From Bdellovibrionia bacterium (lineage in GTDB: Bacteria > Bdellovibrionota > Bdellovibrionia > Bdellovibrionales > JAGQZY01), in assembly GCA_030427805.1 (NCBI GenBank), contig JAUICP010000003.1:515758-579757 (forward strand): a stretch of DNA of 64,000 nucleotides, written 5' to 3'. Position numbers and translations under genes: made by a program. The notes below the pieces were generated by a model. That model searched no databases. It was not told where the DNA came from and saw only the letters and a program-made list of their open reading frames with translations. The stretch's first letter is position 1; the number at the start of each line of letters is the position of its first letter. Below are positions 3,337 to 31,309 of this stretch, piece by piece.

Positions 3337-4614
3337 ATGAATCAAGATATTCATCTCGTCATTGATTTTGGTACTACAAACTCTCTTGTCGCCTATGCCG
3401 ACTCTAAGGGAGCCCATGAACCCATTCATATCCCCGGACAAACAGAAGGCACACCCGTCGTTCGCAGTCTTCTCTATTTTCAAGAAGATCATGAGCCGGT
3501 CTTTGGCATCGAGGCACAGAGGCTATTTGTAGCTAACAATTACGAGGGGAGACTTCTTCGTTCGGTTAAAAAGTTTCTCGCCCAAGAGAGCTTCAAAGGA
3601 ACTCAAATTGGTCAAAAGTTTTATCGCGTCGAAGACATCCTTGGTGCCTTTTTAAAATACCTTAAAACAGGCGCTGAAAAGGTCTTAGAGAAAAGTGTCG
3701 ACCAGGTGGTTCTCGGGCGACCAGCCCGATTTTCTCCCAGCGAAAAAGGGGACCAATTAGCCCACGACAGACTTTTAAAGGCTGCTCAATTCGCTGGTTT
3801 TAAAGAAATTGATTTCTTACAAGAACCTCTCGCTGCGGCTCAAAACTACAAAAAACAGCTCAATGGTGAAAAATTAGTAGCCGTGGTTGACCTCGGTGGT
3901 GGTACTTCTGATTTTACAATCATCAAGCTTTCTGGAAAAACCTTTAAGGCAGAAGATGTTTTAGCGGTAAACGGAATTAATATCGCTGGGGATGTTCTCG
4001 ACGGTAGTATTATGAAAAACCTAGTGGCGCCCGAGTTTGGGAGTGAGGTCACTTATAAACTCCCCATGTCAGATAATATTTTACAGATGCCTCCATTGGT
4101 AAAAGATAAACTTCTCTCTCCACCTGATATTGCTTTTCTTAAAGCTTCTGACATTCAGGATTTTATTGATTCCATTGAACGTTCACTCACCGACGAACGG
4201 GAGCAGAAGAAACTCGACCGACTGAGAGTTCTCGTTGAGGACAATCTCGGTTTTGATCTTTTCGAGCGAATCGAAAAATCGAAGGTCGATGTCTGTGTCA
4301 ATAACCAAGCCCAATTTCAATTTGACTATCCGGAGCTGGAAATGAAAAAAGACTACGCCCTTTCGCAATTCGAAGACTGGTCAAAAAACAAAGTGGACCA
4401 GATCTTTGCTTGTTTTGATGAGACTTTTAGAATGGCCGGCGTTTCTAACTCCGATATTGAGGAGGTCTGCATCACCGGAGGTACCAGCCAGGTTCCCATT
4501 TTTAAAAAGCGCCTCTCCCAGTTATTTGCCGAAGATGTTCTTAATACCAACGAACACTTCCAATCGGTCACCCGAGGGATCGCCGTCTATGCCCATGAAA
4601 AGTATTACGCTTAG
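3337..4614 (+). CDS. Hsp70-family actin-like ATPase lacking a substrate-binding domain (YegD-like)
   Basis: IDFGTTNS phosphate-1 motif, DLGGGTSDFT phosphate-2 motif, GGTSQVP adenosine motif. At 425 aa it covers only the nucleotide-binding domain. Confidence 0.85.
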   Translation: MNQDIHLVIDFGTTNSLVAYADSKGAHEPIHIPGQTEGTPVVRSLLYFQEDHEPVFGIEAQRLFVANNYEGRLLRSVKKFLAQESFKGTQIGQKFYRVEDILGAFLKYLKTGAEKVLEKSVDQVVLGRPARFSPSEKGDQLAHDRLLKAAQFAGFKEIDFLQEPLAAAQNYKKQLNGEKLVAVVDLGGGTSDFTIIKLSGKTFKAEDVLAVNGINIAGDVLDGSIMKNLVAPEFGSEVTYKLPMSDNILQMPPLVKDKLLSPPDIAFLKASDIQDFIDSIERSLTDEREQKKLDRLRVLVEDNLGFDLFERIEKSKVDVCVNNQAQFQFDYPELEMKKDYALSQFEDWSKNKVDQIFACFDETFRMAGVSNSDIEEVCITGGTSQVPIFKKRLSQLFAEDVLNTNEHFQSVTRGIAVYAHEKYYA

Positions 4615-5125: not shown

Positions 5126-6883
5126 ATGGATTCAAAGCGCTACATACAGCTATTAAAAAAATTTGATGGATTAGACGCGGACACTGAGGGAGAGAACACC
5201 AGGTCGTCCGTGAGCTATGCTATTCTTTCGAATTCCGAAACCAATCAACTACAGAAGTGCCTTGGCGCGAGACTCTTTGAGCAAGGTTTTCAACCAAAAC
5301 TCATCAAGACTGAATTTAACAATTTTGCAACGGATAGCCTCGACACTGAAGGAGAACTCTTTCAAAGTGATCTCGATTTTGTATTCTTCGTTTTATCTCC
5401 AATGGGACTCAAAGAAACAATTCCCAGTGAACTCAATGAGCGGAGTCAATTTGCCAGTTCTTTTTTAAGTGAACTCGAAATGTTTGTTAAAAATTTTAGC
5501 AATAAGGGTGTGAAGGTATTTTTGGCCAATATACCGGAAACCTCCGAGAGAGTTTTTGGAAACATGAGTCGGATTTACCCTGCAAGCTTTCTCTACCAAA
5601 TTCAAGCCATCAATGCCGGAATCAATAATTTGGTCGCCAAATCCCAAGGCCTCTATCTTGTCGACCTTGCCTCGAAAGCAAATTACTACGGACTCAGCGA
5701 ATGGCACGATAACGGCCTTTGGCTGCAAGGGAAGTACCCTTGCCACCCGCGCTTCTTTCCTACGATATGTGATGAGGTCTCAGCCATATTTAGTAGTCTT
5801 GTTGGAAAAATTCAAAAATGCTTAGTGCTCGACTTGGACAATACACTTTGGGGTGGCGTCGCCGGAGACGATGGAATCGATGGCGTTAAAATTGGTGATG
5901 GAATTGTCGGCGAGGCCCATGTTCAATTCCAAAAGTACGTACTCGACCTTAAAAATAGGGGTGTCGTACTTACAATTGCCAGTAAAAACTACGAAGACGT
6001 CGCCATAGATATCATCGAAAACCATCCACGAATGATTCTACGAAAAAATGATTTCGCGGTTATAAAAGCGAATTGGGAAGATAAGGCCAGCAATATTCAA
6101 GAAATTGCTGCCGAGTTAAATATTGGCTTAGACTCGCTGGTGTTTCTCGACGACAACCCTTTTGAAAGAGGGATTGTTAGAGATCATCTCCCGCAAGTCT
6201 GCGTTCCAGAGCTTCCTGAGGACCCTACTGAGTTTGTGGACTTCCTGACTCAACTCAACCTCTTTGAGACAACACAGTTTTCTGACGAGGATTTATCTCG
6301 GTCTGAATTCTACTATTCGGAATCCGAAAGAAAGAGTTTGCAAAAAAATGCGGTCGATCTAAAAAACTATTTATCGATGCTCAACATGGAAGCCTGTGTA
6401 AAGCCCATCGACGAAAAAAGTCTTCCCCGATCGGTGCAACTCTCGCAAAGAAGTAATCAGTTCAATTTAAGAACCCAAAGAATCGATGAAATGACTTGCG
6501 AAAAGTATATTAAAGAGCCCGACAAATTCTGTTTCACCGTCGACCTTACCGATAAGTATGGGGCCTTAGGCATCATTAGTTGTGTTTTCATGAGCCTAAA
6601 AAAAGATCATTTGTACATTGATGAATTTATAATGAGCTGTCGAGTTCTCAAAAGAACTGTCGAAAGTCTTATTTTTAATGAAATTCTTAACATCGCTAAA
6701 GAAAATAAAGCTAAGTTTGTCGTAGGCGAATACATACGAACCAAGAAAAACAAGCTCGTTGAAAACCTATATCAAGATTACGGCTTCGAAAACACTGAAA
6801 GAAGTGACGAAGGTAGTCTTTGGAGGATCGAAGTGAGCGGATTTTCTGATTTAGACACCAGCATAAAAGTAAAGAGGAGTTAA
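5126..6883 (+). CDS. FkbH-like HAD-IIIC family protein (carrier-protein loader)
   Basis: CLVLDLDNTLWGGVAGDDGIDGVKIG carries the HAD motif I DxDxT at aa 236-240, codons 5831..5845. ASKN and LDDNP motifs follow. The C-terminal FIMSCRVLKRTVE block is typical of the FkbH family. Its stop is 2 nt from the ACP start. Confidence 0.82.
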   Translation: MDSKRYIQLLKKFDGLDADTEGENTRSSVSYAILSNSETNQLQKCLGARLFEQGFQPKLIKTEFNNFATDSLDTEGELFQSDLDFVFFVLSPMGLKETIPSELNERSQFASSFLSELEMFVKNFSNKGVKVFLANIPETSERVFGNMSRIYPASFLYQIQAINAGINNLVAKSQGLYLVDLASKANYYGLSEWHDNGLWLQGKYPCHPRFFPTICDEVSAIFSSLVGKIQKCLVLDLDNTLWGGVAGDDGIDGVKIGDGIVGEAHVQFQKYVLDLKNRGVVLTIASKNYEDVAIDIIENHPRMILRKNDFAVIKANWEDKASNIQEIAAELNIGLDSLVFLDDNPFERGIVRDHLPQVCVPELPEDPTEFVDFLTQLNLFETTQFSDEDLSRSEFYYSESERKSLQKNAVDLKNYLSMLNMEACVKPIDEKSLPRSVQLSQRSNQFNLRTQRIDEMTCEKYIKEPDKFCFTVDLTDKYGALGIISCVFMSLKKDHLYIDEFIMSCRVLKRTVESLIFNEILNIAKENKAKFVVGEYIRTKKNKLVENLYQDYGFENTERSDEGSLWRIEVSGFSDLDTSIKVKRS

Positions 6884-6885
6884 AA

Positions 6886-7128
6886 TTGACGAAACAAGAG
6901 GTTATACAAAAGCTACAGCCTATTTTTCGAGAAGTCTTTATGGACGAATCACTCAATATTTCTGAGGACCTGACTGCCGAAAATGTCGAAGCCTGGGACT
7001 CCCTATCTCACATAGACATGATTATTCGAGTCGAAGAAGAATTTCAGATTAAGATACCAACCTTAAAGGCCGCTAGTATGAAAAATACGGGTGAGCTTAT
7101 TACTTTGATTTCAGAAAGTCAGAATTAG
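6886..7128 (+). CDS. acyl/peptidyl carrier protein (DltC/ACP-like)
   Basis: 80 aa. VEAWDSLSHIDMIIRVEEEFQIKIP contains the phosphopantetheine-attachment DSL motif (Ser39, codon 7000..7002). TTG start with AGAGGAG RBS. Confidence 0.85.
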   Translation: MTKQEVIQKLQPIFREVFMDESLNISEDLTAENVEAWDSLSHIDMIIRVEEEFQIKIPTLKAASMKNTGELITLISESQN

Positions 7129-7157
7129 ATTTAAAAAAAGCACTCTACGAAAACGTC

Positions 7158-7568
7158 TTATTGAGTCTCAAGCAACTCTATTAAGCCAAAACCCAAGACA
7201 TAATAAAAACTAACTGGGTTTCCCGAAAAAAGAGGAGCCGGAGTCGAATCGGAGACCATCTGATAGCGAATACCTTGCTCCTCAAAAGATTTTAAAACTC
7301 CGGCAACATCTTGAGTTTCCCAGCATGTGTGATAGATGAGGCCATCACCTCTTTTTAGAATATTATCGATTGGCGATGGATGAGTGGCTGGCCAAATCAA
7401 CTCGACCCTGGGATGCTCGACATGATCAGCCTCGCAGACAAAAACTTTTTGACTCTCATCCTCCACATCGGGTCCCAGCTTATAACCCATTTTCTCTAAG
7501 AAGAACTTAGCAGAGTCCGGTTTTTTCAATGCCAATCCAAAATGTCTAAACTTCATTAAATCGATCAC
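7158..7568 (-). CDS. VOC/glyoxalase-fold protein (epimerase-like)
   Basis: 136 aa. FRHFGLAL...VELIWP...IYHTCWE...GFGLIELLE resembles the paired beta-alpha-beta-beta-beta VOC pattern with H/E metal ligands. It overlaps the upstream methyltransferase gene by 4 nt. Confidence 0.6.
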   Translation of the reverse strand: MIDLMKFRHFGLALKKPDSAKFFLEKMGYKLGPDVEDESQKVFVCEADHVEHPRVELIWPATHPSPIDNILKRGDGLIYHTCWETQDVAGVLKSFEEQGIRYQMVSDSTPAPLFSGNPVSFYYVLGFGLIELLETQ

Positions 7569-8458
7569 TTTAAAACCATAGCAAGGTTAATAGGCAGTTG
7601 TCTCTTCTCGGAATCCTCAAGACTCGTACCTGGATGGGGAGCATAAAATTCGCGCTCAACTTCAAAACCTGCAGACTCGCAAAGACTGCGAACTTCACCG
7701 ATTGTATTGAAAAGGTAAATATGATCGACAGCCGGAGCATTGCAACAGGTCGTTATAAATACTTTTGCCCCTGGATTGGATAGCGACTTGAGCTTTTTCA
7801 GAAATTCGAGGGGTTCCTCAACATGCTCTAAAACCTCACCCATAACTAAAAAATCAAAGCCTTGATCAACTTCCATCTCTAGAAAGTTTTGTTTTTTAAC
7901 GTGAACTTCCTTATCGGTACCCAGGGAACTCACTGCCTCTTTAGTTAGACGTATACTGGTATCGCTTAAATCCACTGCTAAAAAATGTTCAAACTTTGAA
8001 TGAGAAATGGCGTAGGTAAAATGCAATCCATGGCCAGGGCCCACCTCTAAATAGGATCCCTTTCTCTCTTTGGGGAGTATCTCGGTAAAGAACTCAAACA
8101 ACTGGCGATGATTACTCCAGAGAAACTGAGTTAAAGCTAAGCCGAGCATATAAAAGTTCATATACTCATCATTAAAATAAACCGCATCGGCTACCTCGTC
8201 GAAACGGCTAAATCGATATTTCTTATTCTTTCTAAAGTAGATTTGCTCTCCAAGAGTATCATTGACGATTTTATTGTAGGACTCTGCCAACTCGGCAATC
8301 CCCCGCCCTTCGTCGAGCTTGTTTTGAATATACTCTTTAAGCATGTTTTTTTCGTCTGAGGGAATCGTCTTAAGCGACTCCTCAAGAAAACTCTTTTGCC
8401 GAGGATTTTCGCTAATGATTGTGTCTACGAGTTGCTCAATAACATCTGAAGAATTCAT
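7565..8458 (-). CDS. class I SAM-dependent methyltransferase
   Basis: YLEVGPGHG (motif I, GxGxG), AVDLS (motif II acidic residue), FDFLVMGEVLEHV (motif III region). Confidence 0.8.
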   Translation of the reverse strand: MNSSDVIEQLVDTIISENPRQKSFLEESLKTIPSDEKNMLKEYIQNKLDEGRGIAELAESYNKIVNDTLGEQIYFRKNKKYRFSRFDEVADAVYFNDEYMNFYMLGLALTQFLWSNHRQLFEFFTEILPKERKGSYLEVGPGHGLHFTYAISHSKFEHFLAVDLSDTSIRLTKEAVSSLGTDKEVHVKKQNFLEMEVDQGFDFLVMGEVLEHVEEPLEFLKKLKSLSNPGAKVFITTCCNAPAVDHIYLFNTIGEVRSLCESAGFEVEREFYAPHPGTSLEDSEKRQLPINLAMVLK

Positions 8459-8538
8459 GGCAATCCAAAGAAAGGGTATTAAAAATTTTTAACCTATATT
8501 AGTATGTCTTAGTAGAAATCGAAATTGTAGGCCAGTTT

Positions 8539-9594
8539 ATGATATCGAGTGGGTTCAACTCAAGACGGCGATTTTTCGCTTTTATATTTATACTCATTTT
8601 GCCCTTAATCCTTCCCTGGGTAATAGAGCTACTCTACCTTGGCAACTTGAGATCCAGCTATGTTCAATTTTCAAATTTTTCCGGATCCTATAATGTCTAC
8701 CATCAAGTAATAGAGTCGCCAAAGAAGAGTCAAATTCTCATATTTGGCAATTCCGGTGGACTCTCTGCCATAGATCCAATCTACTTAGAACCTCTCTTCA
8801 AAAACGATTTAAATGAAGATGTCGAAGTAAGAAATATTTCCGTAACTGGAGATTCAGTAGCCCTTCCCTACCTCATCCTGGAAGATCTCATAAAAAAAAA
8901 CAAGAAACCCGAGTTGTTTATCTACCAGTTACCTGGCAATGAATCTCAATTCTATCATCCCTCTTCTAGGATATTATTCAAATTAACAGAGCACTACCGT
9001 CTCCTCTTGGAGGGTACAATTGACCTACAAACATTCGCTAAATTTTATGCGGTTAAAGCACTCGATTCAATGAGTGCTCTCCTCCATTTAATTCTCAATT
9101 GGGACGTCAGACTCACCAAAGAATTTATACAAGATTCGAAGACTAATAATGGAGCCAAATTCTACAAGGAAGTTCCACTCACAGAAAGCAATTACGACGT
9201 GGCCCCTAATGACCAGTATCCAGATCGTTCCCTTCTTTTTAAGGCTGCTTATAAATATACAAATGATCAACTGATTTGGTACAAGCTTCTTGAAAAATTG
9301 GCCGCAGAAAACCAGGTCCGCCTTGTTTACATGCTTTTTCCGTACAAGAGAAAAGGCTACCAAGAAAACAAATTTAACATCGCTCTCAATTTTGACTCTG
9401 TATTCAAAGAAAATATTCACCTTATGGGAATTACACGAAGTCAATTCGAATCGAGCCTTACGAAAGAGCAAATTAAAGATTTCGACGGTGATCCACACCA
9501 TTTTGGCCGAGATATTTCAATTCTACACTCTAAATGGCTTTACCCACAGATGCTACGACATCTAAAAGAGACTAGAGGCAAAAATGAAGAATAA
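8539..9594 (+). CDS. N-terminally membrane-anchored SGNH/DltD/AlgJ-like putative extracytoplasmic acyltransferase
   Basis: One N-terminal TM helix (FFAFIFILILPLILPWVIELL). ILIFGNSGG gives a GxS block with Ser72. The C-terminal FDGDPHHF gives Asp318-x-His320, like SGNH block V. It sits directly upstream of the microprotein and MBOAT genes. The fold assignment is not verified. Confidence 0.5.
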   Translation: MISSGFNSRRRFFAFIFILILPLILPWVIELLYLGNLRSSYVQFSNFSGSYNVYHQVIESPKKSQILIFGNSGGLSAIDPIYLEPLFKNDLNEDVEVRNISVTGDSVALPYLILEDLIKKNKKPELFIYQLPGNESQFYHPSSRILFKLTEHYRLLLEGTIDLQTFAKFYAVKALDSMSALLHLILNWDVRLTKEFIQDSKTNNGAKFYKEVPLTESNYDVAPNDQYPDRSLLFKAAYKYTNDQLIWYKLLEKLAAENQVRLVYMLFPYKRKGYQENKFNIALNFDSVFKENIHLMGITRSQFESSLTKEQIKDFDGDPHHFGRDISILHSKWLYPQMLRHLKETRGKNEE

Positions 9595-9715
9595 CTTTAG
9601 AATGGATCCAAAACTCTTTTTGATTCTATTGAGCCTATCGCTCATTATTCTCTTTTTACTTATGCAAATGGAACCTTACCATTTTCAACCCAAGTTCATT
9701 TACGAGAGGTTCTAA
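9584..9715 (+). CDS. DltX-like transmembrane microprotein with C-terminal FIYERF acyl-shuttle-type motif (not in ORF track)
   Basis: My translation is MKNNFRMDPKLFLILLSLSLIILFLLMQMEPYHFQPKFIYERF*. It has a basic N-terminus, one TM helix and a C-terminal hexapeptide F-I-Y-E-R-F. The ATG overlaps the upstream gene by 11 nt. The TAA at 9713..9715 directly abuts the MBOAT TTG start at 9716. Confidence 0.6.
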   Translation: MKNNFRMDPKLFLILLSLSLIILFLLMQMEPYHFQPKFIYERF

Positions 9716-10918
9716 TTGCTGAGCACTCAAACCTTCATTTATCTGGGCTTTTATGGAATTTTCTTTATTTATTTGAGGAATTTCCACCCAAAGCTTAAGA
9801 GCATCTGGTGGGCCCTCATCAACTTGAGCTTTGTTATCTTTTGCTTCTCGAATATCGTGGTCACTCAATTTGAAAACCTGCATCTCGAAATAATAACGGC
9901 CTTAATTACCGACACGAGTTTTCACATTTTCTTTTTTGTGTTGTTTATTTCTTACTTGCTCATTTGGCTCGATGAGAAGTTCAGAAAGGATTTAGGCTTA
10001 GCCTATATAGCTCCAATACTCTTTCTAGTTATTGCTAAAACCTTACCAGAGTTTGCAATCGTTGGTGCCTCATACCTCAGTTTTAGGCTCCTTTACCTGC
10101 GATATGAGATCAGACATAAAGGCACGCCATTCCCCTCGCCTTCACAGTTTATTGAGTTCACATGTTTTCCTCTGACTTTTCCCATGGGCCCTATCTCGCC
10201 ATTGAGAGATCATTTAAATAACCACGAGAAAGATGAGGTAAAAAGCTCTACTTTTAATATATTAACTCGATTCCTATCGGGCTGTCTCAAACTCTTCTAT
10301 TTGAGCTTCATCCCCCTAATGGCCAGGTACCACCTCTATCCCGAGGGGATTCACTCTATATTTGGAATTGAAGACATTCTGCTCTATGGCTTTCTTTATT
10401 ATCTATACGTTTATATTAACTTTAGTGGCGCCGCCGATGCAATTATAGCGATCTCCCAACTCGGTCGCCTGAGAGTCGCTGAAAATTTTAACAATCCTCT
10501 TTCGGCATCAAATATTCAAGATTTCTGGATGAAATGGCATATGAGTTTAACAAACATAATTAGAGAACTCGTCTTTTCACCCCTTTACCTTGTACTAAAA
10601 CGAAAGGCTCCAAAGGCCAAATGGACGGCCTTATTTATTTCGAGCCTTCTACTTTTTTTGGCCGTTGGACTCTGGCATGGCATAAGCATTCCTTTTATAT
10701 TACTAGGCATTTACCATGGAATCGGTGTTTGCTTTTACTTTTTATACAAAGATTGGGCGAGCCGAAAAATTAAATTAGCTCGTAATAAAACTTACTACAA
10801 AATTTTGGCGATCCTAATTACACAGGCCTTTGTATCTTTTAGCTTTATATTTTTTGAAGCGAGCACCAATGATTTAAAGGTTCTATTTTATCGAATCTTT
10901 CTGGGGATAGAGCTTTAG
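9716..10918 (+). CDS. MBOAT family membrane-bound O-acyltransferase (DltB/AlgI-like)
   Basis: Polytopic protein. IQDFWMKWHMSLTNIIRELVFSPLY matches FWRRWHISLS-type motifs, and AVGLWHGISIPF carries the conserved catalytic His. TTG start. Confidence 0.88.
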   Translation: MLSTQTFIYLGFYGIFFIYLRNFHPKLKSIWWALINLSFVIFCFSNIVVTQFENLHLEIITALITDTSFHIFFFVLFISYLLIWLDEKFRKDLGLAYIAPILFLVIAKTLPEFAIVGASYLSFRLLYLRYEIRHKGTPFPSPSQFIEFTCFPLTFPMGPISPLRDHLNNHEKDEVKSSTFNILTRFLSGCLKLFYLSFIPLMARYHLYPEGIHSIFGIEDILLYGFLYYLYVYINFSGAADAIIAISQLGRLRVAENFNNPLSASNIQDFWMKWHMSLTNIIRELVFSPLYLVLKRKAPKAKWTALFISSLLLFLAVGLWHGISIPFILLGIYHGIGVCFYFLYKDWASRKIKLARNKTYYKILAILITQAFVSFSFIFFEASTNDLKVLFYRIFLGIEL

Positions 10919-10938: not shown

Positions 10939-11787
10939 TTAATTTTCCTTAGATTCACTTTCCAATAGAAATTGAAATACACTCTCCCAGTAGAGTTTTT
11001 GTTCGACTTGAATGTCATTGTGACCTTTATCAAACTCTACGAACTTTTTGGGTCCACGAAGTGCGGCGAATAACTTCTTACCGTGATGAATCGGTATGAG
11101 CTGGTCTCGCTTTCCGTGCATTATAAGGGCTGGCTGGTCATAGGACTTTAAGGTCTCTTCGGACCTGTATTTGTTTTCGATGAGAAATTCAGGCACACGA
11201 AACAATTCATAGGCTCTTTCTACTAAGCTAGAAAACGAAGATTCAATGATCAAGTGAGTGGATTTGCGAAATTGGGAGAGGTGGATTATAACTCCACCTC
11301 CGATCGATCGCCCGTGAAAAACGATGCGATCCTGTTCCCCTTTGACCTTAATCAATTTATCGTAGAAATACTTGAAGTCTTCACTTAGGTTCTCTTGACT
11401 CGGAGTCCCCCGTGACCTTCCATAACCACGGTATTCAACCAATAAGACATTTAAATTGAGATCCTTATAATAGGGAGAAAATGCGATCAGCCAGTCATCG
11501 ATAATTTCATTATTGCCGTGGGCAAAAATGACAGTTCCCCTGGATTCAGCTTCTTTCCTTGCCGGAATAAAAATAGCTTCGACGACCATTTCTCCGTCGA
11601 GGGGCTTTTCCCAGATTTCAAAGTTGATCTCTGCTTGTATTTGGTTGAGCTGAGTCTCACTCAATGCTATTCGCTGCCACACGCCTGGGTATACAAATCG
11701 GCTCTCAAAAAACATCATTCCTCCAAATACTGAAAGAAAGGCAACCAGTATAAGAACCAAAAGGGCAATTACGATCTTCTTTTTCAT
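10939..11787 (-). CDS. alpha/beta hydrolase, membrane anchored
   Basis: N-terminal TM helix, HGNNE oxyanion region, HGRSIGGG (GxSxG) nucleophile, C-terminal GHND His. Confidence 0.8.
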   Translation of the reverse strand: MKKKIVIALLVLILVAFLSVFGGMMFFESRFVYPGVWQRIALSETQLNQIQAEINFEIWEKPLDGEMVVEAIFIPARKEAESRGTVIFAHGNNEIIDDWLIAFSPYYKDLNLNVLLVEYRGYGRSRGTPSQENLSEDFKYFYDKLIKVKGEQDRIVFHGRSIGGGVIIHLSQFRKSTHLIIESSFSSLVERAYELFRVPEFLIENKYRSEETLKSYDQPALIMHGKRDQLIPIHHGKKLFAALRGPKKFVEFDKGHNDIQVEQKLYWESVFQFLLESESKEN

Positions 11788-16027: not shown

Positions 16028-16104
16028 TGGGGCGACCGACGGGGCTTGAACCCGCGACAACCGGAATCACAATCCGGGGCTCTACCAACTGAGCTACGGC
16101 CGCC
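16028..16104 (-). tRNA. tRNA-His (GTG anticodon), CCA encoded
   Basis: The reverse complement is GGCGGCCGTAGCTCAGTTGGTAGAGCCCCGGATTGTGATTCCGGTTGTCGCGGGTTCAAGCCCCGTCGGTCGCCCCA. It shows a cloverleaf, anticodon loop TTGTGAT, T-loop TTCAAGC, and the extra 5' G(-1) opposite C73 that is diagnostic of tRNA-His. Confidence 0.95.
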
Positions 16105-20923: not shown

Positions 20924-23074
20924 CTAATTTCTCTTTTTAGAGGCGCGTACCTTCATCATTGGAATTTCTTTGATCGATTGCTTCTTACCTTCAATTGGCT
21001 TTCCATTATCGGTAATCACAACAGCTTGTTCTGCATCAGAAACAGAACTCAGCTCCCTTTGAATGACATGACTCCTCTTCAATTGAGGATTTCTGGTAAA
21101 AGAAAAACGAATAATCGAGTTCTTCGACTTGTATATGGGAAGATCGCGAAAGGGCATTTTAAATTGTTTAAGAGTCATACTCTCAGGGTCGTTAATGAGC
21201 CATCGAAACTGACCCAGGTAAAAAGCGAGGACTTCTGTTTCTTTATCAAATACAAAGTCTGACTTTTTGAGATCATCGCGACGGAAAAGGTCTGTCATTC
21301 TAAAGTTAGGCCTAAAAACTGTTGTATGATCATTTCGGCCAAGTAACATATCTTTGAAATATTCGTCGTCAAACTGAACCCTAAAGGCCACGCGCAGATA
21401 ATAAGGAATTCCGTTTTTAAGGGCTTCCTCTAAGTAAGTTCTCGCCAAGGCCCTTCTTAGTAACTCGTTTTTAGGCAAAGCAAACATATCGCTCGGGTCG
21501 GTCGAAAACCCTTCGTAGGCCTCGAAGTGCTGAATAAAGCGGGCTTCAAACTTTTCGGGATTTTTAATTGGCGCCTCTTGGGATAGCCAAGAAATAAAAA
21601 CAATATTAACCATTAAAAATGGCAGCGAGGTTTTTAAAATCACATTTCTAAAGAGTCCAGCCGAACTCAAAGCCAAACCAAGGTACGCCCCGACAAATAG
21701 CTCAAATCGAAGTTCGTGGTAAAAAGGTTTTTCAAAAAACGCATAGAGAAACCCAATACAAACGAGGATGGCGAGAAGGGCTATTGATTGGGTCATACCC
21801 CAGCCTTTTTCGATGACACCACTATTCTGACTATTCTGCTTTGCTTCCGTCATTGCGGTTTTACTACGAGTTGCAAAAATTCCGCTGGTTCGAGATCGAC
21901 CGACCTTAGAGAGTAAAGAAGTTTTTTTCTTTTCTTTCTCCTGCTGCTTCTTTGCATCTTGATGCTCTTTTACAACCTTTTCTAGTAAATCATTTGGAAT
22001 AGAAATGGGGCCCGATACCGCCTCATTCGCTTCGCTTAAGGGAATTGTCGCATCCTCGTCAACGACTCCTCCGACAGAGACCTGTAACTTAAGAGCCTCT
22101 TCAGCGGCGCGGTCCAGTAATTTCTGCGCCTCCCTGCGACTAAAACCTTTCTGCATAAGTTTTAGTTGCAAAGCTGGCTCATTAACAATGTCGTAGTTTC
22201 TTATGATTTCTTCTGGTCGCTCTCCTTCGAGCTGTGACAGAGGCAGCTCATCGAGCAGACTTAATATTTCTTCACAGCTTGAGAAACGATCTTCTGGAGA
22301 TTTCTCTAGCATTTTACAAACAATATCAATAAAGAGAGAGGGTATTCTCTCATGCTCTTCTTCTGTAAATTCAACGGGCTGGTTTCTAATTGCATCGAGT
22401 AAAGCCATTTGATTTTTACCGTTAAAGGGCAGTCTTCCCGTTAACATATAGTAGAAAGTAATACCCGTCGCAAAGATATCGGACTGACTCGAAGGCTCCG
22501 CACCTTTTATAATTTCCGGCGCCAGATAAGTCGGAGTTCCAATAATAATATTCTCTTGCGTGAGCTGCATTCTCTTCGCAGAGTCCAGTGATTTGGCAAT
22601 ACCGAAATCGACGATCTTAACTGTACCATCTGTTTTAACTAAAATATTCTGTGGCTTAATATCTCGGTGAATGACACCTTGTTCGTGACAAGCCGTTAGA
22701 CCGCGACAGATCTGAATGAGATATTCTACAGCTTCTCTGACGCCGATCTTTCTCTCTTTGATAATATCGTAAAGAGGCTGACCTTCTATGTATTCAATGA
22801 CGAGGTAGAAACTGACCCCTCTTCGCCCCAAGGAATAAAGTCTGACGACATTTTGATGATCAATACCGGCAATGGTTCTTGCCTCTAAAATAAAGCGATC
22901 GATTAATTCCTGACTATCAGATTTATTGGGAATAACGAGTTTAAGAGCAACTTTTCGACGAAGTTGATTGTCATGGGCGAGGTAAACCTCTCCCATTCCA
23001 CCTTCGCCTATTCGTTGTAAAATCTCAAAATGGTCGACTAATTCTCCGACCTTGAGTGGTCCCACCGCTGACAT
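20924..23074 (-). CDS. membrane-spanning Ser/Thr protein kinase with ~200-aa C-terminal domain of unknown function
   Basis: GEGGMGEVY (P-loop), VALK, HRDIKPQNIL, DFG, PTYLAPE. Hydrophobic helices lie near aa 430-510. Confidence 0.9.
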   Translation of the reverse strand: MSAVGPLKVGELVDHFEILQRIGEGGMGEVYLAHDNQLRRKVALKLVIPNKSDSQELIDRFILEARTIAGIDHQNVVRLYSLGRRGVSFYLVIEYIEGQPLYDIIKERKIGVREAVEYLIQICRGLTACHEQGVIHRDIKPQNILVKTDGTVKIVDFGIAKSLDSAKRMQLTQENIIIGTPTYLAPEIIKGAEPSSQSDIFATGITFYYMLTGRLPFNGKNQMALLDAIRNQPVEFTEEEHERIPSLFIDIVCKMLEKSPEDRFSSCEEILSLLDELPLSQLEGERPEEIIRNYDIVNEPALQLKLMQKGFSRREAQKLLDRAAEEALKLQVSVGGVVDEDATIPLSEANEAVSGPISIPNDLLEKVVKEHQDAKKQQEKEKKKTSLLSKVGRSRTSGIFATRSKTAMTEAKQNSQNSGVIEKGWGMTQSIALLAILVCIGFLYAFFEKPFYHELRFELFVGAYLGLALSSAGLFRNVILKTSLPFLMVNIVFISWLSQEAPIKNPEKFEARFIQHFEAYEGFSTDPSDMFALPKNELLRRALARTYLEEALKNGIPYYLRVAFRVQFDDEYFKDMLLGRNDHTTVFRPNFRMTDLFRRDDLKKSDFVFDKETEVLAFYLGQFRWLINDPESMTLKQFKMPFRDLPIYKSKNSIIRFSFTRNPQLKRSHVIQRELSSVSDAEQAVVITDNGKPIEGKKQSIKEIPMMKVRASKKRN

Positions 23075-23202: not shown

Positions 23203-25122
23203 TTAATTGACGTCTTTAAACTCGGCGTCAATTACATCATCGTCTCCATCTGATCCACCACTTGAATCAGTAGCGCCGGCTGAATCACCAGCGGCATCAG
23301 AGCCCGATTGCTCAGTTTTATAGAGCTCTGCAGACATCTTCTGAAGAAGAGTTTGCAAAATTCCATACTGACTTTTCATATCGTCAAAACTGGCGGCATC
23401 GCCTTGCATGAGAAGCTTCTTAGAGTTCTCTACGGCATCTTTCGCCGACTGAACTTCGTCATTACTAAATTTAGTTTCGTTGTCAGTAATCAACTTATTC
23501 ATCTGATAGACAAGACCGTCGAGATCGTTACGCAAAGTAACTTTCTCTTTCTTCTTTCTATCGACTTCAGTATTTTCCTCGGCTTCTTTAACCATGCGAT
23601 CGATCTCTTGATCCGAAAGACCTGACTTAGCCTTGATCTGAATCGCAGTTTCTTTACCGGTTCCTACATCTTTCGCATTAACATTGAGGATACCGTTGGC
23701 ATCAATATCAAAAGTGACTTCAATTTGTGGAACACCACGAGCCGCAGGAGGAATTCCAACAAGTTCAAATCGGCCGAGGGACTTATTATCAACGGCCATC
23801 TCTCGCTCCCCTTGAAGAACGTGAATTTCAACCTTGGTTTGATTGTCTTCTGCCGTCGAAAAAGTTTGGGACTTTTTCACTGGGATCGTCGTATTTCGAT
23901 CGATCAAGGCCGTGAAAACACCGCCAAGAGTTTCGATACCAAGTGAAAGTGGTGTTACATCTAAAAGTAGAACATCTTTTACGTCTCCTGAGAGAACTCC
24001 ACCTTGAATGGCAGCACCAATCGCCACAACTTCATCAGGATTCACTGACTTGTTTGGCTCTTTATTGAAAAAACGTTTTACCGCATCTTGGATGGCAGGA
24101 ATTCGCGTTGATCCACCGACAAGTACAACCTCATCGATATCTCCAATACTCCAACCAGCATCTTCAAGAGCTTTTTTACAAGGAATTAATGAACCTTCGA
24201 CTAAGTCTTCTGTCAGTTGATTAAACTTAGATCGTGATAGTTTCATTTGTAAGTGTTTAGGACCAGACTGATCTGCAGTGATAAATGGTAGGTTGATTTC
24301 AGTTTCTTGCGAAGTACTGAGCTCAATCTTTGCTTTTTCAGCAGCTTCTTTAAGACGCTGAAGGGCCATCTTATCAGACTGAAGGTCAATGCCTTGGTCT
24401 TTTTTAAATTCATCAATCAACCAATGAAGAACCTTTTCATCAAAGTTATCTCCACCAAGCTGAGTGTCACCATTGGTCGCTTTTACTTCAACAACGTTGT
24501 CACCGACCTCGAGAACAGAGATATCAAAAGTACCACCACCTAAATCGTAAACGGCAATTTTTTGATCTGTCTTTTTATCAAAGCCGTAGGCCAATGCTGC
24601 TGCGGTAGGCTCGTTGATGATTCTTTCAACTTCGAGGCCCGCAATTTTTCCGGCATCCTTAGTTGCCTGTCTTTGAGCATCGTTAAAGTAAGCGGGTACG
24701 GTAATAACCGCACGCTTTACTTCACTGCCCAAATAATCTTCGGCGACTTTTTTAAGCTTGCCGAGAATACTGGCTGAAATCTCTTCCGGAGAAACCTGCT
24801 TTTCACCTTCGTTCGTTTTAACAACAAAAGCACAGTCATTACCTTTTTGCACGATGCCATAAGGAACAACGCTAATTTCATTTTGAACTTCTTCAAAGCG
24901 ACGTCCAATGTATCGCTTTGCTGAGAAAATTGTATTTTCAGGGTTGGTAACAGCCTGTCTTTTAGCAACCTGACCAACCAGTTTTTCACCATCTTTAAAT
25001 GCAACAATGGAAGGGGTAGTGCGTGCACCCTCTTCGTTCACAAGAACTTTTGGAGATCCGCCTTCCATAATAGAAACAACCGAGTTCGTCGTTCCTAAAT
25101 CAATTCCGATAATTTTGCTCAT
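23203..25122 (-). CDS. dnaK: chaperone DnaK (Hsp70)
   Basis: [22 protein letters not shown], full NBD plus SBD, acidic C-terminus. Start set at Met15 of the track ORF (AAGGGAG RBS upstream). Confidence 0.98.
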
Positions 25123-25163
25123 TTGAGGACTCCCTTCTCTGATAAATCCTTCATACGTGTCCA

Positions 25164-25191
25164 ATATGGGGTCTTATTCGTACTCGTCAAG
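25164..25191 (-). promoter_or_regulatory. sigma-32-type heat-shock promoter for dnaK
   Basis: The minus strand reads CTTGAC-N14-CCCCATAT against the consensus CTTGAA-N13-15-CCCCATNT. It lies in the dnaJ-dnaK spacer. Confidence 0.65.
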
Positions 25192-29020: not shown

Positions 29021-31309
29021 ATGCTCAGTTCTAACTTAGAAAAAAGACTCAATGCTGCCGCTGACTTTGCGAAGACCAGTGGACATGAATTCGTGAGTCT
29101 CGAACATATATTGAGATTTCTACTCGATGATGCTGAGGCCATCGAGATCCTCGCTCACTGCGGCGCGAACATCGACGAGTTAAAGACTAAGCTCGATAAA
29201 TTCATTGATGAAAACTGTCCTCTGATCGATGAAAGCGGAGATGATTACTCCGATGATTGGAAGCCGGAGTTTACCCTTGCCTGCCATCGACTTTTACAAC
29301 GAGCGGTCATTCAAGTTCAGAGTGCCGGAAGAGATATGGTCACTATTGGGCACATTCTCGTAGCCCTTTTTGACGAAAGAGAAAGCCACGCCGTTTTCTT
29401 TTTAGAAGAACAAGGCGTTAACCAATTTGATATTATCAACTTCATTTCCCACGGAGTAAAACGACTTCAGCACAGCGTTCAAAGTCGTCCCGGAGATGAG
29501 TCTTCTGAATCTTCAGGAACTATGGGTAAATCGGCCCTAGAAGCCTATTGCGTAAACTTGAACGAAAAGGCCATCGAAGGAAAAACCGACCCCCTCATCG
29601 GTCGCGATGAGGTTATCGAGCGCATGATTCAAGTTCTCTGTCGACGCACTAAGAATAATCCTCTGCTTATTGGAGAGCCTGGTGTTGGTAAAACGGCCAT
29701 TGCCGACGGCTTAGCCCAAAGAATCGTCGATCGCGAAGTTCCCGAAAGACTCTACAATGCAGAAATATTCGCTCTCGATATGGGTTTAGTCCTTGCGGGA
29801 ACAAAGTTTCGCGGTGACTTTGAAGAACGTCTCAAAGGAATTTTGGCCGAACTCAAAGAAAGAGAAAACGGTATTATTTTTATCGATGAAATCCACACTC
29901 TGATTGGTGCAGGAGCCACGAGTGGTGGATCCATGGACGCATCTAACCTACTGAAACCCGGTCTTGCCAGTGGAGAATTGAGTTGTATCGGCTCGACAAC
30001 CTACAAAGAATACCGTCAGTACTTCGAAAAAGATCGAGCACTGACTCGACGTTTTCAAAAAATCGACATCAAAGAACCAACCCAAGAAGAAGCCATTGAT
30101 ATTTTAAAGGGACTTAAACCCAGATACGAAAAATTTCACAATGTTCGCTATTCTGAAGAAGCCCTCGAGAAGGCTGTAGAACTCTCGGCACGATATATTC
30201 CCGCTCGTTTCTTACCCGACAAAGCCATTGATGTTATGGACGAAGTCGGAGCTCAAGCATCAATTAAGAATAGTGGTAACGAAGATCCCGTTGAGATCAA
30301 CCTGCAGGATATTGAGAAAGTCATCTCTTCAATCGCCCAAGTTCCCACTCAAAGTGTTTCTTCAAACGATAAGGATCGCCTCAGACAACTCAGCTTTAGT
30401 TTGAAGTCACTGATTTTTGGACAAGACAAGGCTATAGATGCTCTCGCTGCTTCAATCAAGGCGTCGCGCTCTGGTTTGGGACGAGAAGATAAACCCATTG
30501 GTTCGTTTCTCTTCGCTGGACCAACGGGAGTGGGAAAAACTGAAGTTACAAAACAACTGGCCAAATACTTGGGCAATAAATTGATCCGCTTTGACATGTC
30601 AGAATACATGGAAAAGCATGCTGTTTCTCGCCTGGTCGGAGCGCCTCCGGGATATGTGGGTTATGAAGAAGGCGGATTGTTGACCGAAGAAGTTGTAAAA
30701 AACCCTTACTCGGTTGTTTTACTGGATGAAATTGAAAAGGCCCACCCCGACCTCATCAATATTCTTCTCCAAGTTCTGGATAATGGAAGTTTAACTGATC
30801 CTCACGGTAAGGTCGCTGACTTCAGAAATACAATTATCATTATGACCACCAATGCGGGAGCCCGCGAAGCCGCCAAATCTGGAATTGGTATTAATCCACC
30901 AAGCCCTGAAGGCATCTCGGATGAGGCTATTAAACGAGTCTTTGCTCCCGAGTTTATCAATCGACTCGACTCCATCATTCACTTTGGACCACTCACAGAA
31001 GACGTCGTTTTAAGGGTTGTCGACAAATTCATACTCGAACTTGGAACACAGCTAGCGAAGCAAAATGTAGATATTGTCGTTTCTGAAAAGGCGAGAACGT
31101 GGCTTGTCGAAAAAGGTTATGATCCCGTTTATGGTGCTCGTCCCATGGCACGAGCCATCGACAAACACCTTAAGACTCCGCTCATTGACGAGATCCTTTT
31201 TGGTAAGCTCGAAAAAGGCGGAAAGGTGAGTGTCGATCTCGTTAAGGGAGATTTGAAATTTAAGTTTGAAACCCGTGAGAAAAAGAAGGAGGAGGCGAAG
31301 GTTAAGTAA
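29021..31309 (+). CDS. clpA: ATP-dependent Clp protease ATP-binding subunit ClpA
   Basis: Clp N-domain and two AAA+ modules: GEPGVGKT with IIFIDEIH, and GPTGVGKT with [11 protein letters not shown]. No middle (M) domain, so ClpA rather than ClpB. Confidence 0.97.

Follow-up and report, generated by a model that had tools for sequence, protein, structure and literature searches.

How could a Dlt-type (D-alanylation) relay run without DltA, the adenylating ligase? The question is raised by a seven-gene module in our window (the whole 64-kb stretch of DNA that was analysed), of which a preliminary description had recognized five parts: an FkbH-like protein, a carrier protein, a 351-aa protein, a 43-aa microprotein and an MBOAT. 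All five lie where that description placed them and carry the motifs it listed, and profile searches assign members of the set to FkbH (TIGR01686), the carrier proteins and the DltB-like MBOATs. All the in-silico checks suggested in that description favoured its interpretation. DltA had been called missing, and indeed none of the ORFs in the 64-kb window contains an adenylation core motif. We consider it probable that the module makes a small hydroxyacyl group in the cytoplasm and attaches it by an ester bond to an extracytoplasmic component of the envelope, using a Dlt-type relay with an ATP-independent loader. Glyceryl loading, the Tyr relay and transfer to the acceptor are all inferred, and none of these steps has been demonstrated biochemically.

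Two minus-strand genes inside 5126-10918, encoding a VOC protein and a methyltransferase, had gone unnoticed; both are co-conserved with the module. Here and in the related locus L008 the module forms three transcription units, not a single operon, and the abutting or overlapping genes are, at the level of sequence, consistent with translational coupling. Forty related loci, drawn from Verrucomicrobiota and Armatimonadota genomes and from soil, peat and other metagenomes, carry the MBOAT clade together with the gene for the 351-aa type of protein.

The proposed loading enzyme, its carrier and the cargo

The FkbH-like protein (5126-6883, plus strand, 585 aa) comprises FkbH_N, HAD-IIIC phosphatase and C-terminal Cys-bearing transferase domains, with DLDNT at residues 236-240 (HAD Asp236, codon at 5831-5833; this and all codons below are on the plus strand) and MSCRVLKR at 503-510 (Cys505, 6638-6640). 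Its proposed FkbH-like HAD-IIIC identity was borne out by a profile search, in which TIGR01686 scored 293 bits against a cut-off of 146.65; TIGR01681 and PF21211 also matched. DLDNT, S286, K320, DDNP and MSCRVL.R are invariant in seven orthologues of 29-35% identity. FkbH enzymes are known to convert 1,3-bisphosphoglycerate to glyceryl-ACP (see also PMC7489565, PMC3679948).

The stand-alone acyl carrier protein gene (6886-7128, plus strand, 80 aa, TTG start) begins 2 nt past the FkbH-like stop, as had been noted, with GGAG ahead of its start. WDSLSH occupies residues 37-42 and includes the phosphopantetheine-attachment Ser39 (7000-7002), again as claimed. Profile searches gave only generic ACP matches, below cut-off (NF009104, 40 bits), and the DltC model NF003464 reached 19.8 bits, under its equivalog cut-off. 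In most related loci, too, the ACP gene directly follows the FkbH gene.

The VOC/glyoxalase-type enzyme (methylmalonyl-CoA-epimerase-like; 7158-7568, minus strand) matched PF13669 at 1e-11 in the profile search. In the PDB it matched, at 2e-14, two entries whose depositors named them lactoylglutathione lyase and glyoxalase-I (2QH0 and 3HDP), and methylmalonyl-CoA epimerase 1JC4 at 0.05. We propose that it is an isomerase or epimerase of an ACP-bound 2-hydroxyacyl thioester. For the class I SAM-dependent methyltransferase (7565-8458, minus strand; Methyltransf_23/31/12/11), which has an N-terminal extension of ~115 aa and weak similarity to UbiG and BioC, we propose a role as O-methylase of the cargo. 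Orthologues of it occur in loci L008 (52% identity), L012 (41%) and L001, and phmmer or clustering added those of L026, L030 and L031. A VOC gene, with or without the methyltransferase, was found in 13 loci and a MaoC dehydratase gene with an SDR gene in 12; no locus had both sets. Taken with the dehydratase and reductase that replace them elsewhere, the VOC and methyltransferase genes point to a tailored derivative, not plain glyceryl, although the cargo remains unproven. By inference, a MaoC dehydratase and a ketoreductase-type SDR are what conversion of a 2,3-dihydroxyacyl to a 2-hydroxyacyl thioester would require. Both glyceryl and lactyl groups have been found as exopolysaccharide decorations (PMC4432689).

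The same relay might instead carry something else, the FkbH-like enzyme loading a non-glycerate unit from another acyl phosphate or phosphorylated acid, which would rule out glyceryl, lactyl and methylglyceryl as the cargo. TIGR01686 is a broad 'subfamily_domain' model with many uncharacterised members; glyceryl-ACP formation has been demonstrated for only a few, which leaves room for a different cargo. Moreover, the closest solved relative, 3SLR (BF1531 of Bacteroides fragilis, E 3e-71), is itself uncharacterised, and the VOC, methyltransferase, MaoC and SDR families are generic. This reading must, however, accommodate the invariance of every FkbH signature (DxDxT, S, K, DDNP and the MSCRV Cys) and the fit of MaoC plus SDR to a 2,3-dihydroxyacyl thioester, and we know of no FkbH-family substrate other than a glycerate-derived unit. 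We regard a non-glycerate cargo as unlikely, though it should be kept in mind.

The membrane components and the acceptor

The MBOAT gene (9716-10918, plus strand, 400 aa, TTG start) abuts the microprotein stop and has GAGG ahead of its start. Its product carries FWMKWHMSL at residues 270-278, with the catalytic-type His275 (10538-10540), and GLWHG at 318-322, with His321 (10676-10678). The DltB model TIGR04091 scored 136 bits (E 1.4e-39), not reaching the equivalog cut-off of 375, and the Pfam MBOAT model scored 26.6 bits against a cut-off of 27. The only PDB matches were DltB structures 6BUG and 8JEM (E 3e-21), in alignments that cover almost the full length and superpose the WHMSL and WHG motifs, in keeping with the original assignment to the DltB/AlgI type. 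The protein lacks a shuttle motif at its own C-terminus, and by profile score its clade stands cleanly apart from canonical DltB.

The microprotein ORF (9584-9715, plus strand, 43 aa) overlaps the 351-aa gene by 11 nt and encodes one TM segment (residues 11-29) and a C-terminal FIYERF followed by the stop codon, with Tyr40 at 9701-9703. The FxYxxF motif has been shown to carry an acyl-Tyr intermediate in Dlt and PatA (PMC12148441). The DltX Pfam model PF12459 did not match, whereas hhalign of the microprotein family against validated DltX gave 91% probability (E 9e-7). A counterpart ORF with the ending [VLA][VI]Yx[G]F is found immediately 5' of the MBOAT gene in 36 of the 37 loci with enough upstream sequence, against a background rate of 0.5% for such ORFs. 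The suggested likeness to DltX is supported in silico. These ORFs are of ~40 aa with a single TM and a Y-x-x-F-stop ending, and share only 17-47% identity, the Tyr and terminal Phe being invariant. The microprotein sequence was not found in a collection of 15 billion proteins and so was apparently never called as a gene there.

The 351-aa protein (8539-9594, plus strand) had been likened to SGNH/DltD/AlgJ proteins on account of the placement of its GNS block (Ser72) and C-terminal DPH. It has a single N-terminal TM (residues 14-32) preceded by RRR, and the motifs FGNSGG (Ser72, 8752-8754) and GDPHH (Asp318, 9490-9492; His321, 9499-9501). Searches against Pfam, NCBIfam and PDB sequences gave no significant match, the best PDB sequence-profile match being PatB at E 0.2; the DltD Pfam model found none of seven family members at E ≤ 10. 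Only 22 relatives were present among 1.84 billion representatives. Across 20 sequences (16-34% identity), Ser72 and His321 do not vary, while the presumed triad Asp is not conserved in the family. The AF2 model (pLDDT 81, pTM 0.86) has an SGNH fold, and its top PDB match in Foldseek was DltD 3BMA, nearly all other top matches being SGNH-type esterases or acyltransferases, although for DltD the E-value was only ~1e-3 and the TM scores 0.3-0.4. Aligned to a true DltD profile with hhalign, the family matched end to end over 317 columns at P = 7.7e-4 (negative controls, P = 0.12 and 0.28), though at a probability of only 25%; this register places Ser72 on the GSS serine and Asp318/His321 on the DltD DxxH. 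Model and alignments support the likeness, that is, a putative N-anchored SGNH fold of DltD-like type. The microprotein is predicted to lie N-in, C-out; positively charged N-termini with one TM each would put the catalytic parts of both proteins outside.

What these components act on is less clear. Our best guess for the acceptor, unproven, is lipopolysaccharide or another surface glycan, a guess that rests on LPS-type neighbours: GT9, GT4, GT2, Wzy_C/O-antigen-ligase-type and AT3 genes often flank the related loci. The preliminary description had also entertained prey peptidoglycan. That idea gains no support from the named relatives, which are Verrucomicrobiota and Armatimonadota MAGs whose loci are often flanked by such glycosyltransferase and O-antigen-ligase-type genes and which, to our knowledge, there is no reason to call predatory. 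Alternatively, the membrane half (SGNH-like protein, microprotein and MBOAT) could modify a membrane lipid or lipoprotein, or de-acylate or remodel, rather than O-acylate a polymer. With the acceptor unknown, no glycan-synthesis genes adjoining the module in the window, and the triad Asp not conserved, this has some appeal, and most characterised SGNH superfamily members are hydrolases (PMC12148441). We nevertheless find it quite improbable: the combination of loader, carrier and Tyr shuttle argues for acyl delivery, not removal, glycan genes flank the related loci repeatedly, and every bacterial MBOAT-SGNH pair characterised so far acylates an envelope polymer (PMC12148441).

Co-conservation of the module

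Co-occurrence across genomes agrees with the module having been read as one system. It spans at least two other phyla, or at least three counting the window's own lineage, and the same gene set in 40 independent loci makes the cluster more than chance. FkbH and ACP genes were found in every locus of the MBOAT clade with enough flank, and the ACP gene often overlaps the SGNH-like gene. An adenylation-motif ORF was never present in loci of this clade; in contrast, most of the ~50 canonical DltB loci from the same scan had DltA, and many the expected DltX, DltC and DltD.

This linkage bears on whether FkbH and ACP could serve a polyketide or other natural-product pathway (e.g., a tetronate or a methoxymalonate-type extender unit), with the MBOAT system an unrelated neighbour. 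In its favour, the biochemically characterised FkbH enzymes known to us all come from secondary-metabolite clusters (PMC7489565, PMC3679948). Yet FkbH-ACP accompanies the MBOAT clade in every locus with enough flank across those phyla, often with the ACP overlap, the window has neither an adenylation-type ORF nor, among its annotated ORFs, PKS or NRPS genes, and profile annotation revealed no FkbK, FkbI or FkbG-type genes in the module; we give this reading very little credence. That the resemblance is accidental, the 43-aa ORF being no gene and the 351-aa protein an unrelated membrane protein, is scarcely believable even though neither matches a curated family and the microprotein is missing from the public collection searched, given the Y-x-x-F-stop ORF at the same position in nearly all loci, the Ser72 and His321 invariant across 20 sequences, and the specific profile matches to DltX and DltD.

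Proposed pathway

In the hydroxyacyl-export reading that we prefer, the HAD domain of the FkbH-like protein would dephosphorylate a glycolytic C3 acyl phosphate (1,3-bisphosphoglycerate), and the glyceryl unit would pass to Cys505 and then to the phosphopantetheine arm on Ser39 of the carrier; family membership and invariant catalytic residues are the grounds for this step. The VOC protein and methyltransferase may then tailor the carrier thioester by C2 epimerisation or isomerisation and O-methylation, where sister loci may use MaoC dehydratase and SDR reductase to turn glyceryl into lactyl. This chemistry is speculative, the step itself being suggested by the mutually exclusive co-conservation of the accessory sets. 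By analogy with DltB and DltX, the acyl-carrier would dock on the cytoplasmic face of the MBOAT, with His275 moving the acyl group across the membrane to Tyr40 of the microprotein. The C-terminal tail of the microprotein would hand it to Ser72 of the SGNH/DltD-like protein, for predicted transfer to a hydroxyl of the envelope acceptor.

Comparison with known systems

No characterised system with this combination had been known to the preliminary description, and we likewise found no published FkbH-loaded Dlt-like cluster in the literature searched. The Dlt pathway (DltX-A-B-C-D; teichoic acid D-alanylation in Firmicutes), whose relay logic is laid out in PMC12148441, shares with the module a thioester-bearing carrier protein, a DltB-type MBOAT of ~400 aa that itself lacks the shuttle motif, a distinct single-TM microprotein with FxYxxF at its C-terminus, and an N-anchored extracytoplasmic SGNH-type transferase with Ser and DxxH at the same positions. 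The module differs in having an FkbH-like HAD and transferase enzyme in place of adenylating DltA, extra tailoring genes (VOC and methyltransferase, or MaoC and SDR), the order SGNH, microprotein, MBOAT rather than X-A-B-C-D, and all four shared components under curated Dlt family cut-offs. Its predicted cargo is a C3 hydroxyacyl, not an amino acid, and would add no positive charge. Its hosts, moreover, appear diderm, judging from Verrucomicrobiota taxonomy as generally known and from the Glt gliding-motility genes in the window, and teichoic acids are not known from diderm bacteria.

With glyceryl-ACP synthases of the FkbH/OzmB/ZmaN type the module shares the domain architecture (FkbH_N, HAD-IIIC, C-terminal Cys), the invariant motifs and a dedicated ACP gene immediately downstream; it lacks a PKS, the FkbK/FkbI dehydrogenases and an FkbG-type methyltransferase, and its acyl-ACP is predicted to feed a membrane acyltransferase for export, not a ketosynthase. 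In PatA/PatB, AlgI/AlgJ/AlgX and WssH/WssI, too, a Tyr-containing hexapeptide serves as the shuttle between an MBOAT and its periplasmic SGNH protein, and the substrates are envelope polymers of diderm bacteria. However, their donor is acetyl-CoA with no carrier protein, and the shuttle motif forms part of the MBOAT itself, carried on two additional helices (PMC12148441), whereas the module has a carrier, a short MBOAT and the motif on a separate microprotein. Finally, the Campylobacter jejuni flagellin-glycan locus also holds an FkbH-domain gene (cj1302) among surface-glycan genes, the glycan being decorated with a di-O-methylglyceroyl group (PMC3068675, PMC7099621). An MBOAT, DltX or SGNH relay has not been described for that locus, where N-linkage of the acyl group to a nucleotide-sugar precursor instead takes place in the cytoplasm.

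Module layout

Within the window the module runs from a gene for an FkbH-like protein (5126-6883; 585 aa, with DLDNT at residues 236-240 and MSCRVLKR at 503-510) and one for a carrier protein (6886-7128; 80 aa, with Ser39 in WDSLSH), through two minus-strand genes for a VOC/glyoxalase-type protein (7158-7568) and a SAM methyltransferase (7565-8458), to those for a 351-aa protein (8539-9594; Ser72 in FGNSGG, Asp318 and His321 in GDPHH), a 43-aa microprotein (9584-9715) whose C-terminus reads FIYERF before the stop, and an MBOAT protein (9716-10918; 400 aa, His275 in FWMKWHMSL and His321 in GLWHG). A preliminary description had named five of these parts as Dlt-type O-acylation machinery with an FkbH-like loader; its coordinates and motifs for all five were reproduced in our ORF list, but the VOC and methyltransferase genes inside the same interval had gone unmentioned.

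The carrier gene starts 2 nt past the FkbH stop with GGAG ahead of it, the microprotein ORF and the 351-aa gene overlap by 11 nt, and the TTG start of the MBOAT gene, preceded by GAGG, directly abuts the microprotein TAA; these junctions suggest coupled translation. A promoter and terminator scan of the window DNA gave no signal exceeding chance. GC content is 0.398 in the module (5126-10918) vs. 0.435 in the rest of the window, with the lowest values (0.33-0.39) in membrane-protein genes, a difference for which either the composition of membrane proteins or horizontal acquisition could account.

FkbH-like loader and carrier protein

The FkbH-like protein, named as such in the preliminary description, cleared the curated cutoff of TIGR01686 (293.1 bits vs. 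146.65), as well as those of TIGR01681 (63.9 vs. 35.75) and PF21211 (71.6 vs. 27). Its architecture, FkbH_N followed by HAD-IIIC and a C-terminal domain, meets the definition of the FkbH family. An uncharacterised Bacteroides fragilis structure, 3SLR, matches the N-terminal two-thirds (E 3e-71). When the window protein was aligned with six orthologues (seven sequences, 29-35% identity), DLDNT, S286, K320, DDNP and the cysteine of MSCRVL.R were invariant.

The carrier protein is an 80-aa ACP bearing the DSL serine; it drew generic ACP matches of 30-40 bits and reached only 19.8 bits against the DltC model (cutoff 68), and on these profile scores it is a generic ACP, with no standing as a DltC equivalog. 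FkbH enzymes are known to convert 1,3-bisphosphoglycerate to glyceryl-ACP (cf. PMC7489565, PMC3679948). That the present enzyme uses 1,3-bisphosphoglycerate to charge its partner ACP with glyceryl is our inference; what is observed is adjacency alone, with a gap of 2 nt in the window, and the two genes also adjoin in most loci that have FkbH.

MBOAT protein and microprotein

Sequence matches of the MBOAT protein in the PDB were confined to DltB (6BUG and 8JEM, E 3e-21), nearly full length (residues 7-387 vs. 20-410) and with WHMSL and WHG lining up with the DltB structures, in keeping with its first reading as DltB/AlgI-like. Its C-terminus lacks Y..F, so that DltB as defined by catalytic His motifs without a shuttle extension is matched; TIGR04091 (DltB), its sole NCBIfam match, was not satisfied at the equivalog level (136.4 bits, under the 375-bit cutoff).

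The Dlt acyl shuttle is an invariant Tyr in the C-terminal FXYXXF hexapeptide of DltX (PMC12148441). The microprotein meets the DltX description of a single TM segment and a C-terminal FxYxxF, and its basic N-terminus and one TM segment predict an outward-facing tail. Sequence searches with it in Pfam, NCBIfam and the PDB gave no significant match. Among 12 aligned orthologues Tyr40 and Phe43 were the sole invariant residues. None of the 12 members matched PF12459 (DltX) at E <= 10; all 12 sequences of a control DltX profile did, and in hhalign the microprotein family matched this validated DltX profile (91% probability, E 9e-7). The proposed resemblance to DltX is thus borne out by the profile-profile match and by a motif kept across loci. 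We also reject a reading of the microprotein as a chance ORF: it was found in 36 of the 37 clade loci having at least 150 nt upstream of the MBOAT gene, the lone exception being a locus with a broken MBOAT ORF, against a background of 0.5% of all ORF segments in the scanned loci passing the same filter.

The exact microprotein sequence was missing from a 15-billion-protein collection in which its same-contig neighbours were present, and has therefore apparently never been called as a gene there. Of the five distinct arrangements among related loci, four lack it in their gene calls, and locus L014 alone has it called. An unannotated protein of ~40 aa ending VYQGF or FIYxxF thus serves as a family-level marker that annotation pipelines miss.

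The 351-aa SGNH-like protein

The 351-aa protein, taken in the preliminary description for an SGNH/DltD-like transferase, had no match by sequence in Pfam, NCBIfam or the PDB (the best was non-significant), and word-indexed homologue searches with it, as a single sequence or a profile, returned almost nothing. Exhaustive HMMER search of 1.84 billion representatives found 22 relatives at E <= 1e-3. Across an alignment of 20 sequences (16-34% identity) Ser72 and His321 never vary and Gly70 hardly does, but the Asp lacks such conservation. With this alignment AlphaFold confidence rose from pLDDT 39 (single sequence) to pLDDT 81 (pTM 0.86). The model has an N-terminal helix, a large helical insert and five short parallel strands (66-69, 97-99, 126-130, 261-266 and 294-297), and Ser72 opens the helix behind strand 1, as in SGNH enzymes. 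The top Foldseek match in the PDB was the DltD structure 3BMA (E 1.1e-3, probability 1.0, TM 0.39), below which came further DltD entries along with GDSL lipases, PatB, TesA and PAF acetylhydrolase, SGNH-type enzymes almost without exception; TM values were modest, at 0.3-0.4 vs. DltD and about 0.5 when normalised to small SGNH targets.

The Pfam DltD model matched none of seven family members. We built a true DltD profile from canonical dlt operons of our metagenome scan (12 of 12 sequences match PF04914), and hhalign aligned the 351-aa family to it over 317 collinear columns (P = 7.7e-4, probability 25%), with anchor on anchor. Ser72 falls on the latter of the two serines in GSS(E), which is invariant in DltD, and Asp318-x-x-His321 on D371-x-x-H374, likewise invariant there. 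In control alignments, covering about 40 columns, P was 0.12 with the MBOAT profile and 0.28 with that of FkbH. From profile alignment and a predicted structure we take the 351-aa protein to be a genuine, if distant, DltD-like SGNH protein for which the fold evidence is moderate: the fold and the Ser/DxxH register speak for the original suggestion, the lack of Pfam DltD membership and of a family-wide Asp against it.

Recurrence of the module

Scanning representative genomes with the MBOAT protein turned up seven loci, which lie in MAGs of Verrucomicrobiota and Armatimonadota. The MBOAT gene and a microprotein ending (V/A)VY(Q/G)GF were present in all seven, a carrier protein in six, FkbH in five, and an N-anchored protein of ~360 aa in six, the remaining locus (L005) being too short to reveal one. 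From the genomic context of relatives of the 351-aa protein came L008, L012 and L013. L008 has exactly the window arrangement, divergent VOC and methyltransferase genes included, at 62% identity for FkbH, 64% for the ACP, 62% for VOC, 52% for the methyltransferase, 48% for the MBOAT protein, 47% for the microprotein and 34% for the SGNH-like protein; L012 is a rearranged module and L013 carries a fused MaoC-SDR gene. Divergence between the window and L008 is uneven, cytoplasmic parts being 52-64% identical vs. 34% for the extracytoplasmic SGNH-like protein, and by this pairwise measure the putatively surface-exposed transferase is the fastest-evolving protein of the module.

A metagenome scan with the MBOAT alignment added 80 further loci, which we scored with our own profiles. 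The MBOAT clade profile splits the clade (at least 350 bits) from canonical DltB (215 bits or less). Wherever the MBOAT protein scored at least 350 bits an SGNH-like gene was also present, and in the clade loci FkbH and ACP were present wherever the flanks allow. The low-scoring group mostly adjoins a DltA-type ORF, with the expected DltX (...FIYNEF), DltC and DltD in many loci. No ORF with the adenylation core motif was found in the 64-kb window or in the 40 clade loci. Both the absence of DltA and the recurrence of the module genes together, in genome and metagenome loci, accordingly uphold what had been put forward from the window alone. The module recurs widely in metagenomes, those from soil and peat among them.

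A divergent variant with a lower-scoring MBOAT protein, L052 (6267-12112), is ordered microprotein (...VAYQQF), SGNH-like, MBOAT, ACP, MaoC, SDR, FkbH; its 394-aa SGNH-like protein (GLSNS ... DDGHFN) was undetected by our own SGNH-like profile. The FkbH gene lies downstream rather than upstream of the MBOAT gene in L026, L028 and L038, and L026 contains a pair of FkbH-like ORF fragments, one on each strand. Three dlt-like operons with a DltA-type adenylation gene (L076 4722-7863, L086 6070-9137 and L080 408-3062) have a DltX ending PF(V/I)YQGF, closer to the VVYQGF of the FkbH clade than to FIYNEF, and in L076 and L086 the MBOAT ORF reaches an unusual length of 542 aa; the three operons are possibly intermediates, or Dlt systems of a Gram-negative type.

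Predicted cargo and acceptor

The VOC protein's best solved relatives are 2QH0 and 3HDP (E 2e-14), deposited as lactoylglutathione lyase and glyoxalase-I; methylmalonyl-CoA epimerase is a weaker match. Thirteen loci, the window counted, have a VOC gene, whether or not the methyltransferase accompanies it, and 12 have a MaoC dehydratase with an SDR/ketoreductase; the two cassettes alternate and never occur together. Glyoxalase I/epimerase-type VOC enzymes work via an enediolate beside a thioester, and the VOC enzyme could by inference epimerise or isomerise C2 of the cargo, while the methyltransferase could O-methylate a cargo hydroxyl. In the other cassette, the MaoC and SDR enzymes would dehydrate a 2,3-dihydroxyacyl thioester and reduce the resulting 2-oxoacyl thioester to lactyl-ACP, an inferred route that rests on the lactate-starter logic of FkbH-containing PKS loading modules; lactyl is the oxygen analogue of alanyl. 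Such groups occur on bacterial surfaces: exopolysaccharides can bear lactyl groups or glyceryl groups, the latter as L-glycerate in gellan (PMC4432689), the flagellin glycan of Campylobacter jejuni carries a di-O-methylglyceroyl group (PMC3068675), and its flagellin-glycan locus contains an FkbH-domain gene (PMC7099621).

Recurrent neighbours in related loci are GT9 (heptosyltransferase family), Wzy_C/O-antigen-ligase-type, GT4, GT2 and AT3 acyltransferase genes. These glycan genes point to LPS or another surface glycan as the putative acceptor, a pointer from gene neighbourhood for which there are no biochemical data. We reject the earlier suggestion of prey peptidoglycan: nothing supports it, and the relatives with a name are MAGs of Verrucomicrobiota and Armatimonadota, phyla that we know of no reason to call predatory. 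The window flanks are uninformative for the acceptor, with an Hsp70-like protein and a 94-aa ORF upstream and an alpha/beta hydrolase (10939-11787, minus strand), convergent with the MBOAT gene, downstream. The hydrolase had no tblastn match in L008 and is thus probably outside the module. In a close relative (a cluster at 90% identity or more) the hydrolase and MBOAT proteins lie on 5197-bp contigs, probably one contig.

Comparison with known systems

We propose, tentatively and with slightly less than even confidence, that the module is the founding case of a hydroxyacylation of the diderm envelope that is widespread, needs no ATP and is fed by glycolysis, and in which glyceryl, lactyl or O-methylglyceryl units are exported by a Dlt-type Tyr shuttle to LPS or other surface glycans. 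The nearest known system is Dlt itself, which has in common with the module a carrier, a short DltB-type MBOAT protein, a Tyr shuttle on a microprotein of its own and a membrane-anchored transferase, SGNH-like in the module by our reading; the module does not, however, belong to the Dlt pathway as defined, since it lacks DltA and all four shared components fall under curated family thresholds. Given the missing DltA and apparently diderm hosts, we infer that a D-alanine cargo on (lipo)teichoic acid is unlikely. O-acetyltransferases of the PatAB/AlgIJ type differ from the module: they fuse the shuttle hexapeptide to the MBOAT C-terminus and use an acyl-CoA donor without a carrier (PMC12148441), whereas the module has a short MBOAT protein, the motif on a separate microprotein and a carrier; MBOAT pathways other than Dlt have neither a carrier protein nor a DltX-like microprotein (PMC12148441). 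We reject a polyketide or other natural-product role for want of adenylation genes in the window and of PKS genes among its annotated ORFs: unlike polyketide FkbH systems, the module has no PKS or downstream oxidation genes (no FkbK or FkbI dehydrogenase, FkbG O-methyltransferase or PKS consumer was found in the module or its flanks), and its methyltransferase is a Methyltransf_23 protein, of a different class I family from FkbG.

A full-text search of a limited library for FkbH together with DltX, MBOAT, DltB, DltD or AlgI returned only aeruginosin natural-product papers, so the module is apparently undescribed in the literature searched. The Dlt relay, from carrier through MBOAT protein, microprotein Tyr and SGNH serine to polymer, was reportedly resolved only in 2023, and to our knowledge Dlt has been regarded as the single carrier-protein-dependent case among bacterial MBOAT-SGNH systems. 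The module would be a second such branch, with the microprotein kept and the loader and cargo swapped. If our proposal is true, the carrier-dependent Dlt relay is an export device of general use whose cargo can be swapped, and no Firmicute speciality; a glycolytic acyl phosphate, not ATP, is spent on neutral C3 hydroxyacyl surface esters; and the two alternative tailoring cassettes would yield lineage-specific surface chemistry. We know of no identified transferases for glyceryl and lactyl decorations of polysaccharides; the module supplies concrete candidate genes for these, would supply their enzymology if the reading holds, and gives studies of MBOAT substrate selectivity a new test bed.

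Genomic surroundings

About 500 bp upstream of the module lies a truncated YegD-type Hsp70-like gene (3337-4614, plus strand; PRK11678 162 bits, below cutoff), and 12 kb downstream a bona fide DnaK gene (23203-25164, minus strand). The interval 32519-36961 (minus strand) holds adventurous-gliding-motility-like ORFs, among them a GltC-like one (4e-12) and a GltG/GltJ-like one with an AgmX/PglI C-terminal domain (1e-41). The Glt-type genes, DnaK, ClpA (29021-31309, plus strand) and MutS2 (52727-55063, plus strand) fit a Bdellovibrionota- or Myxococcota-like diderm without proving it. The window also encodes a Ser/Thr protein kinase with a PknB-like kinase domain (20924-23074, minus strand), a large lytic transglycosylase (45974-48112, plus strand) and a single tRNA, tRNA-His (16028-16103, minus strand).
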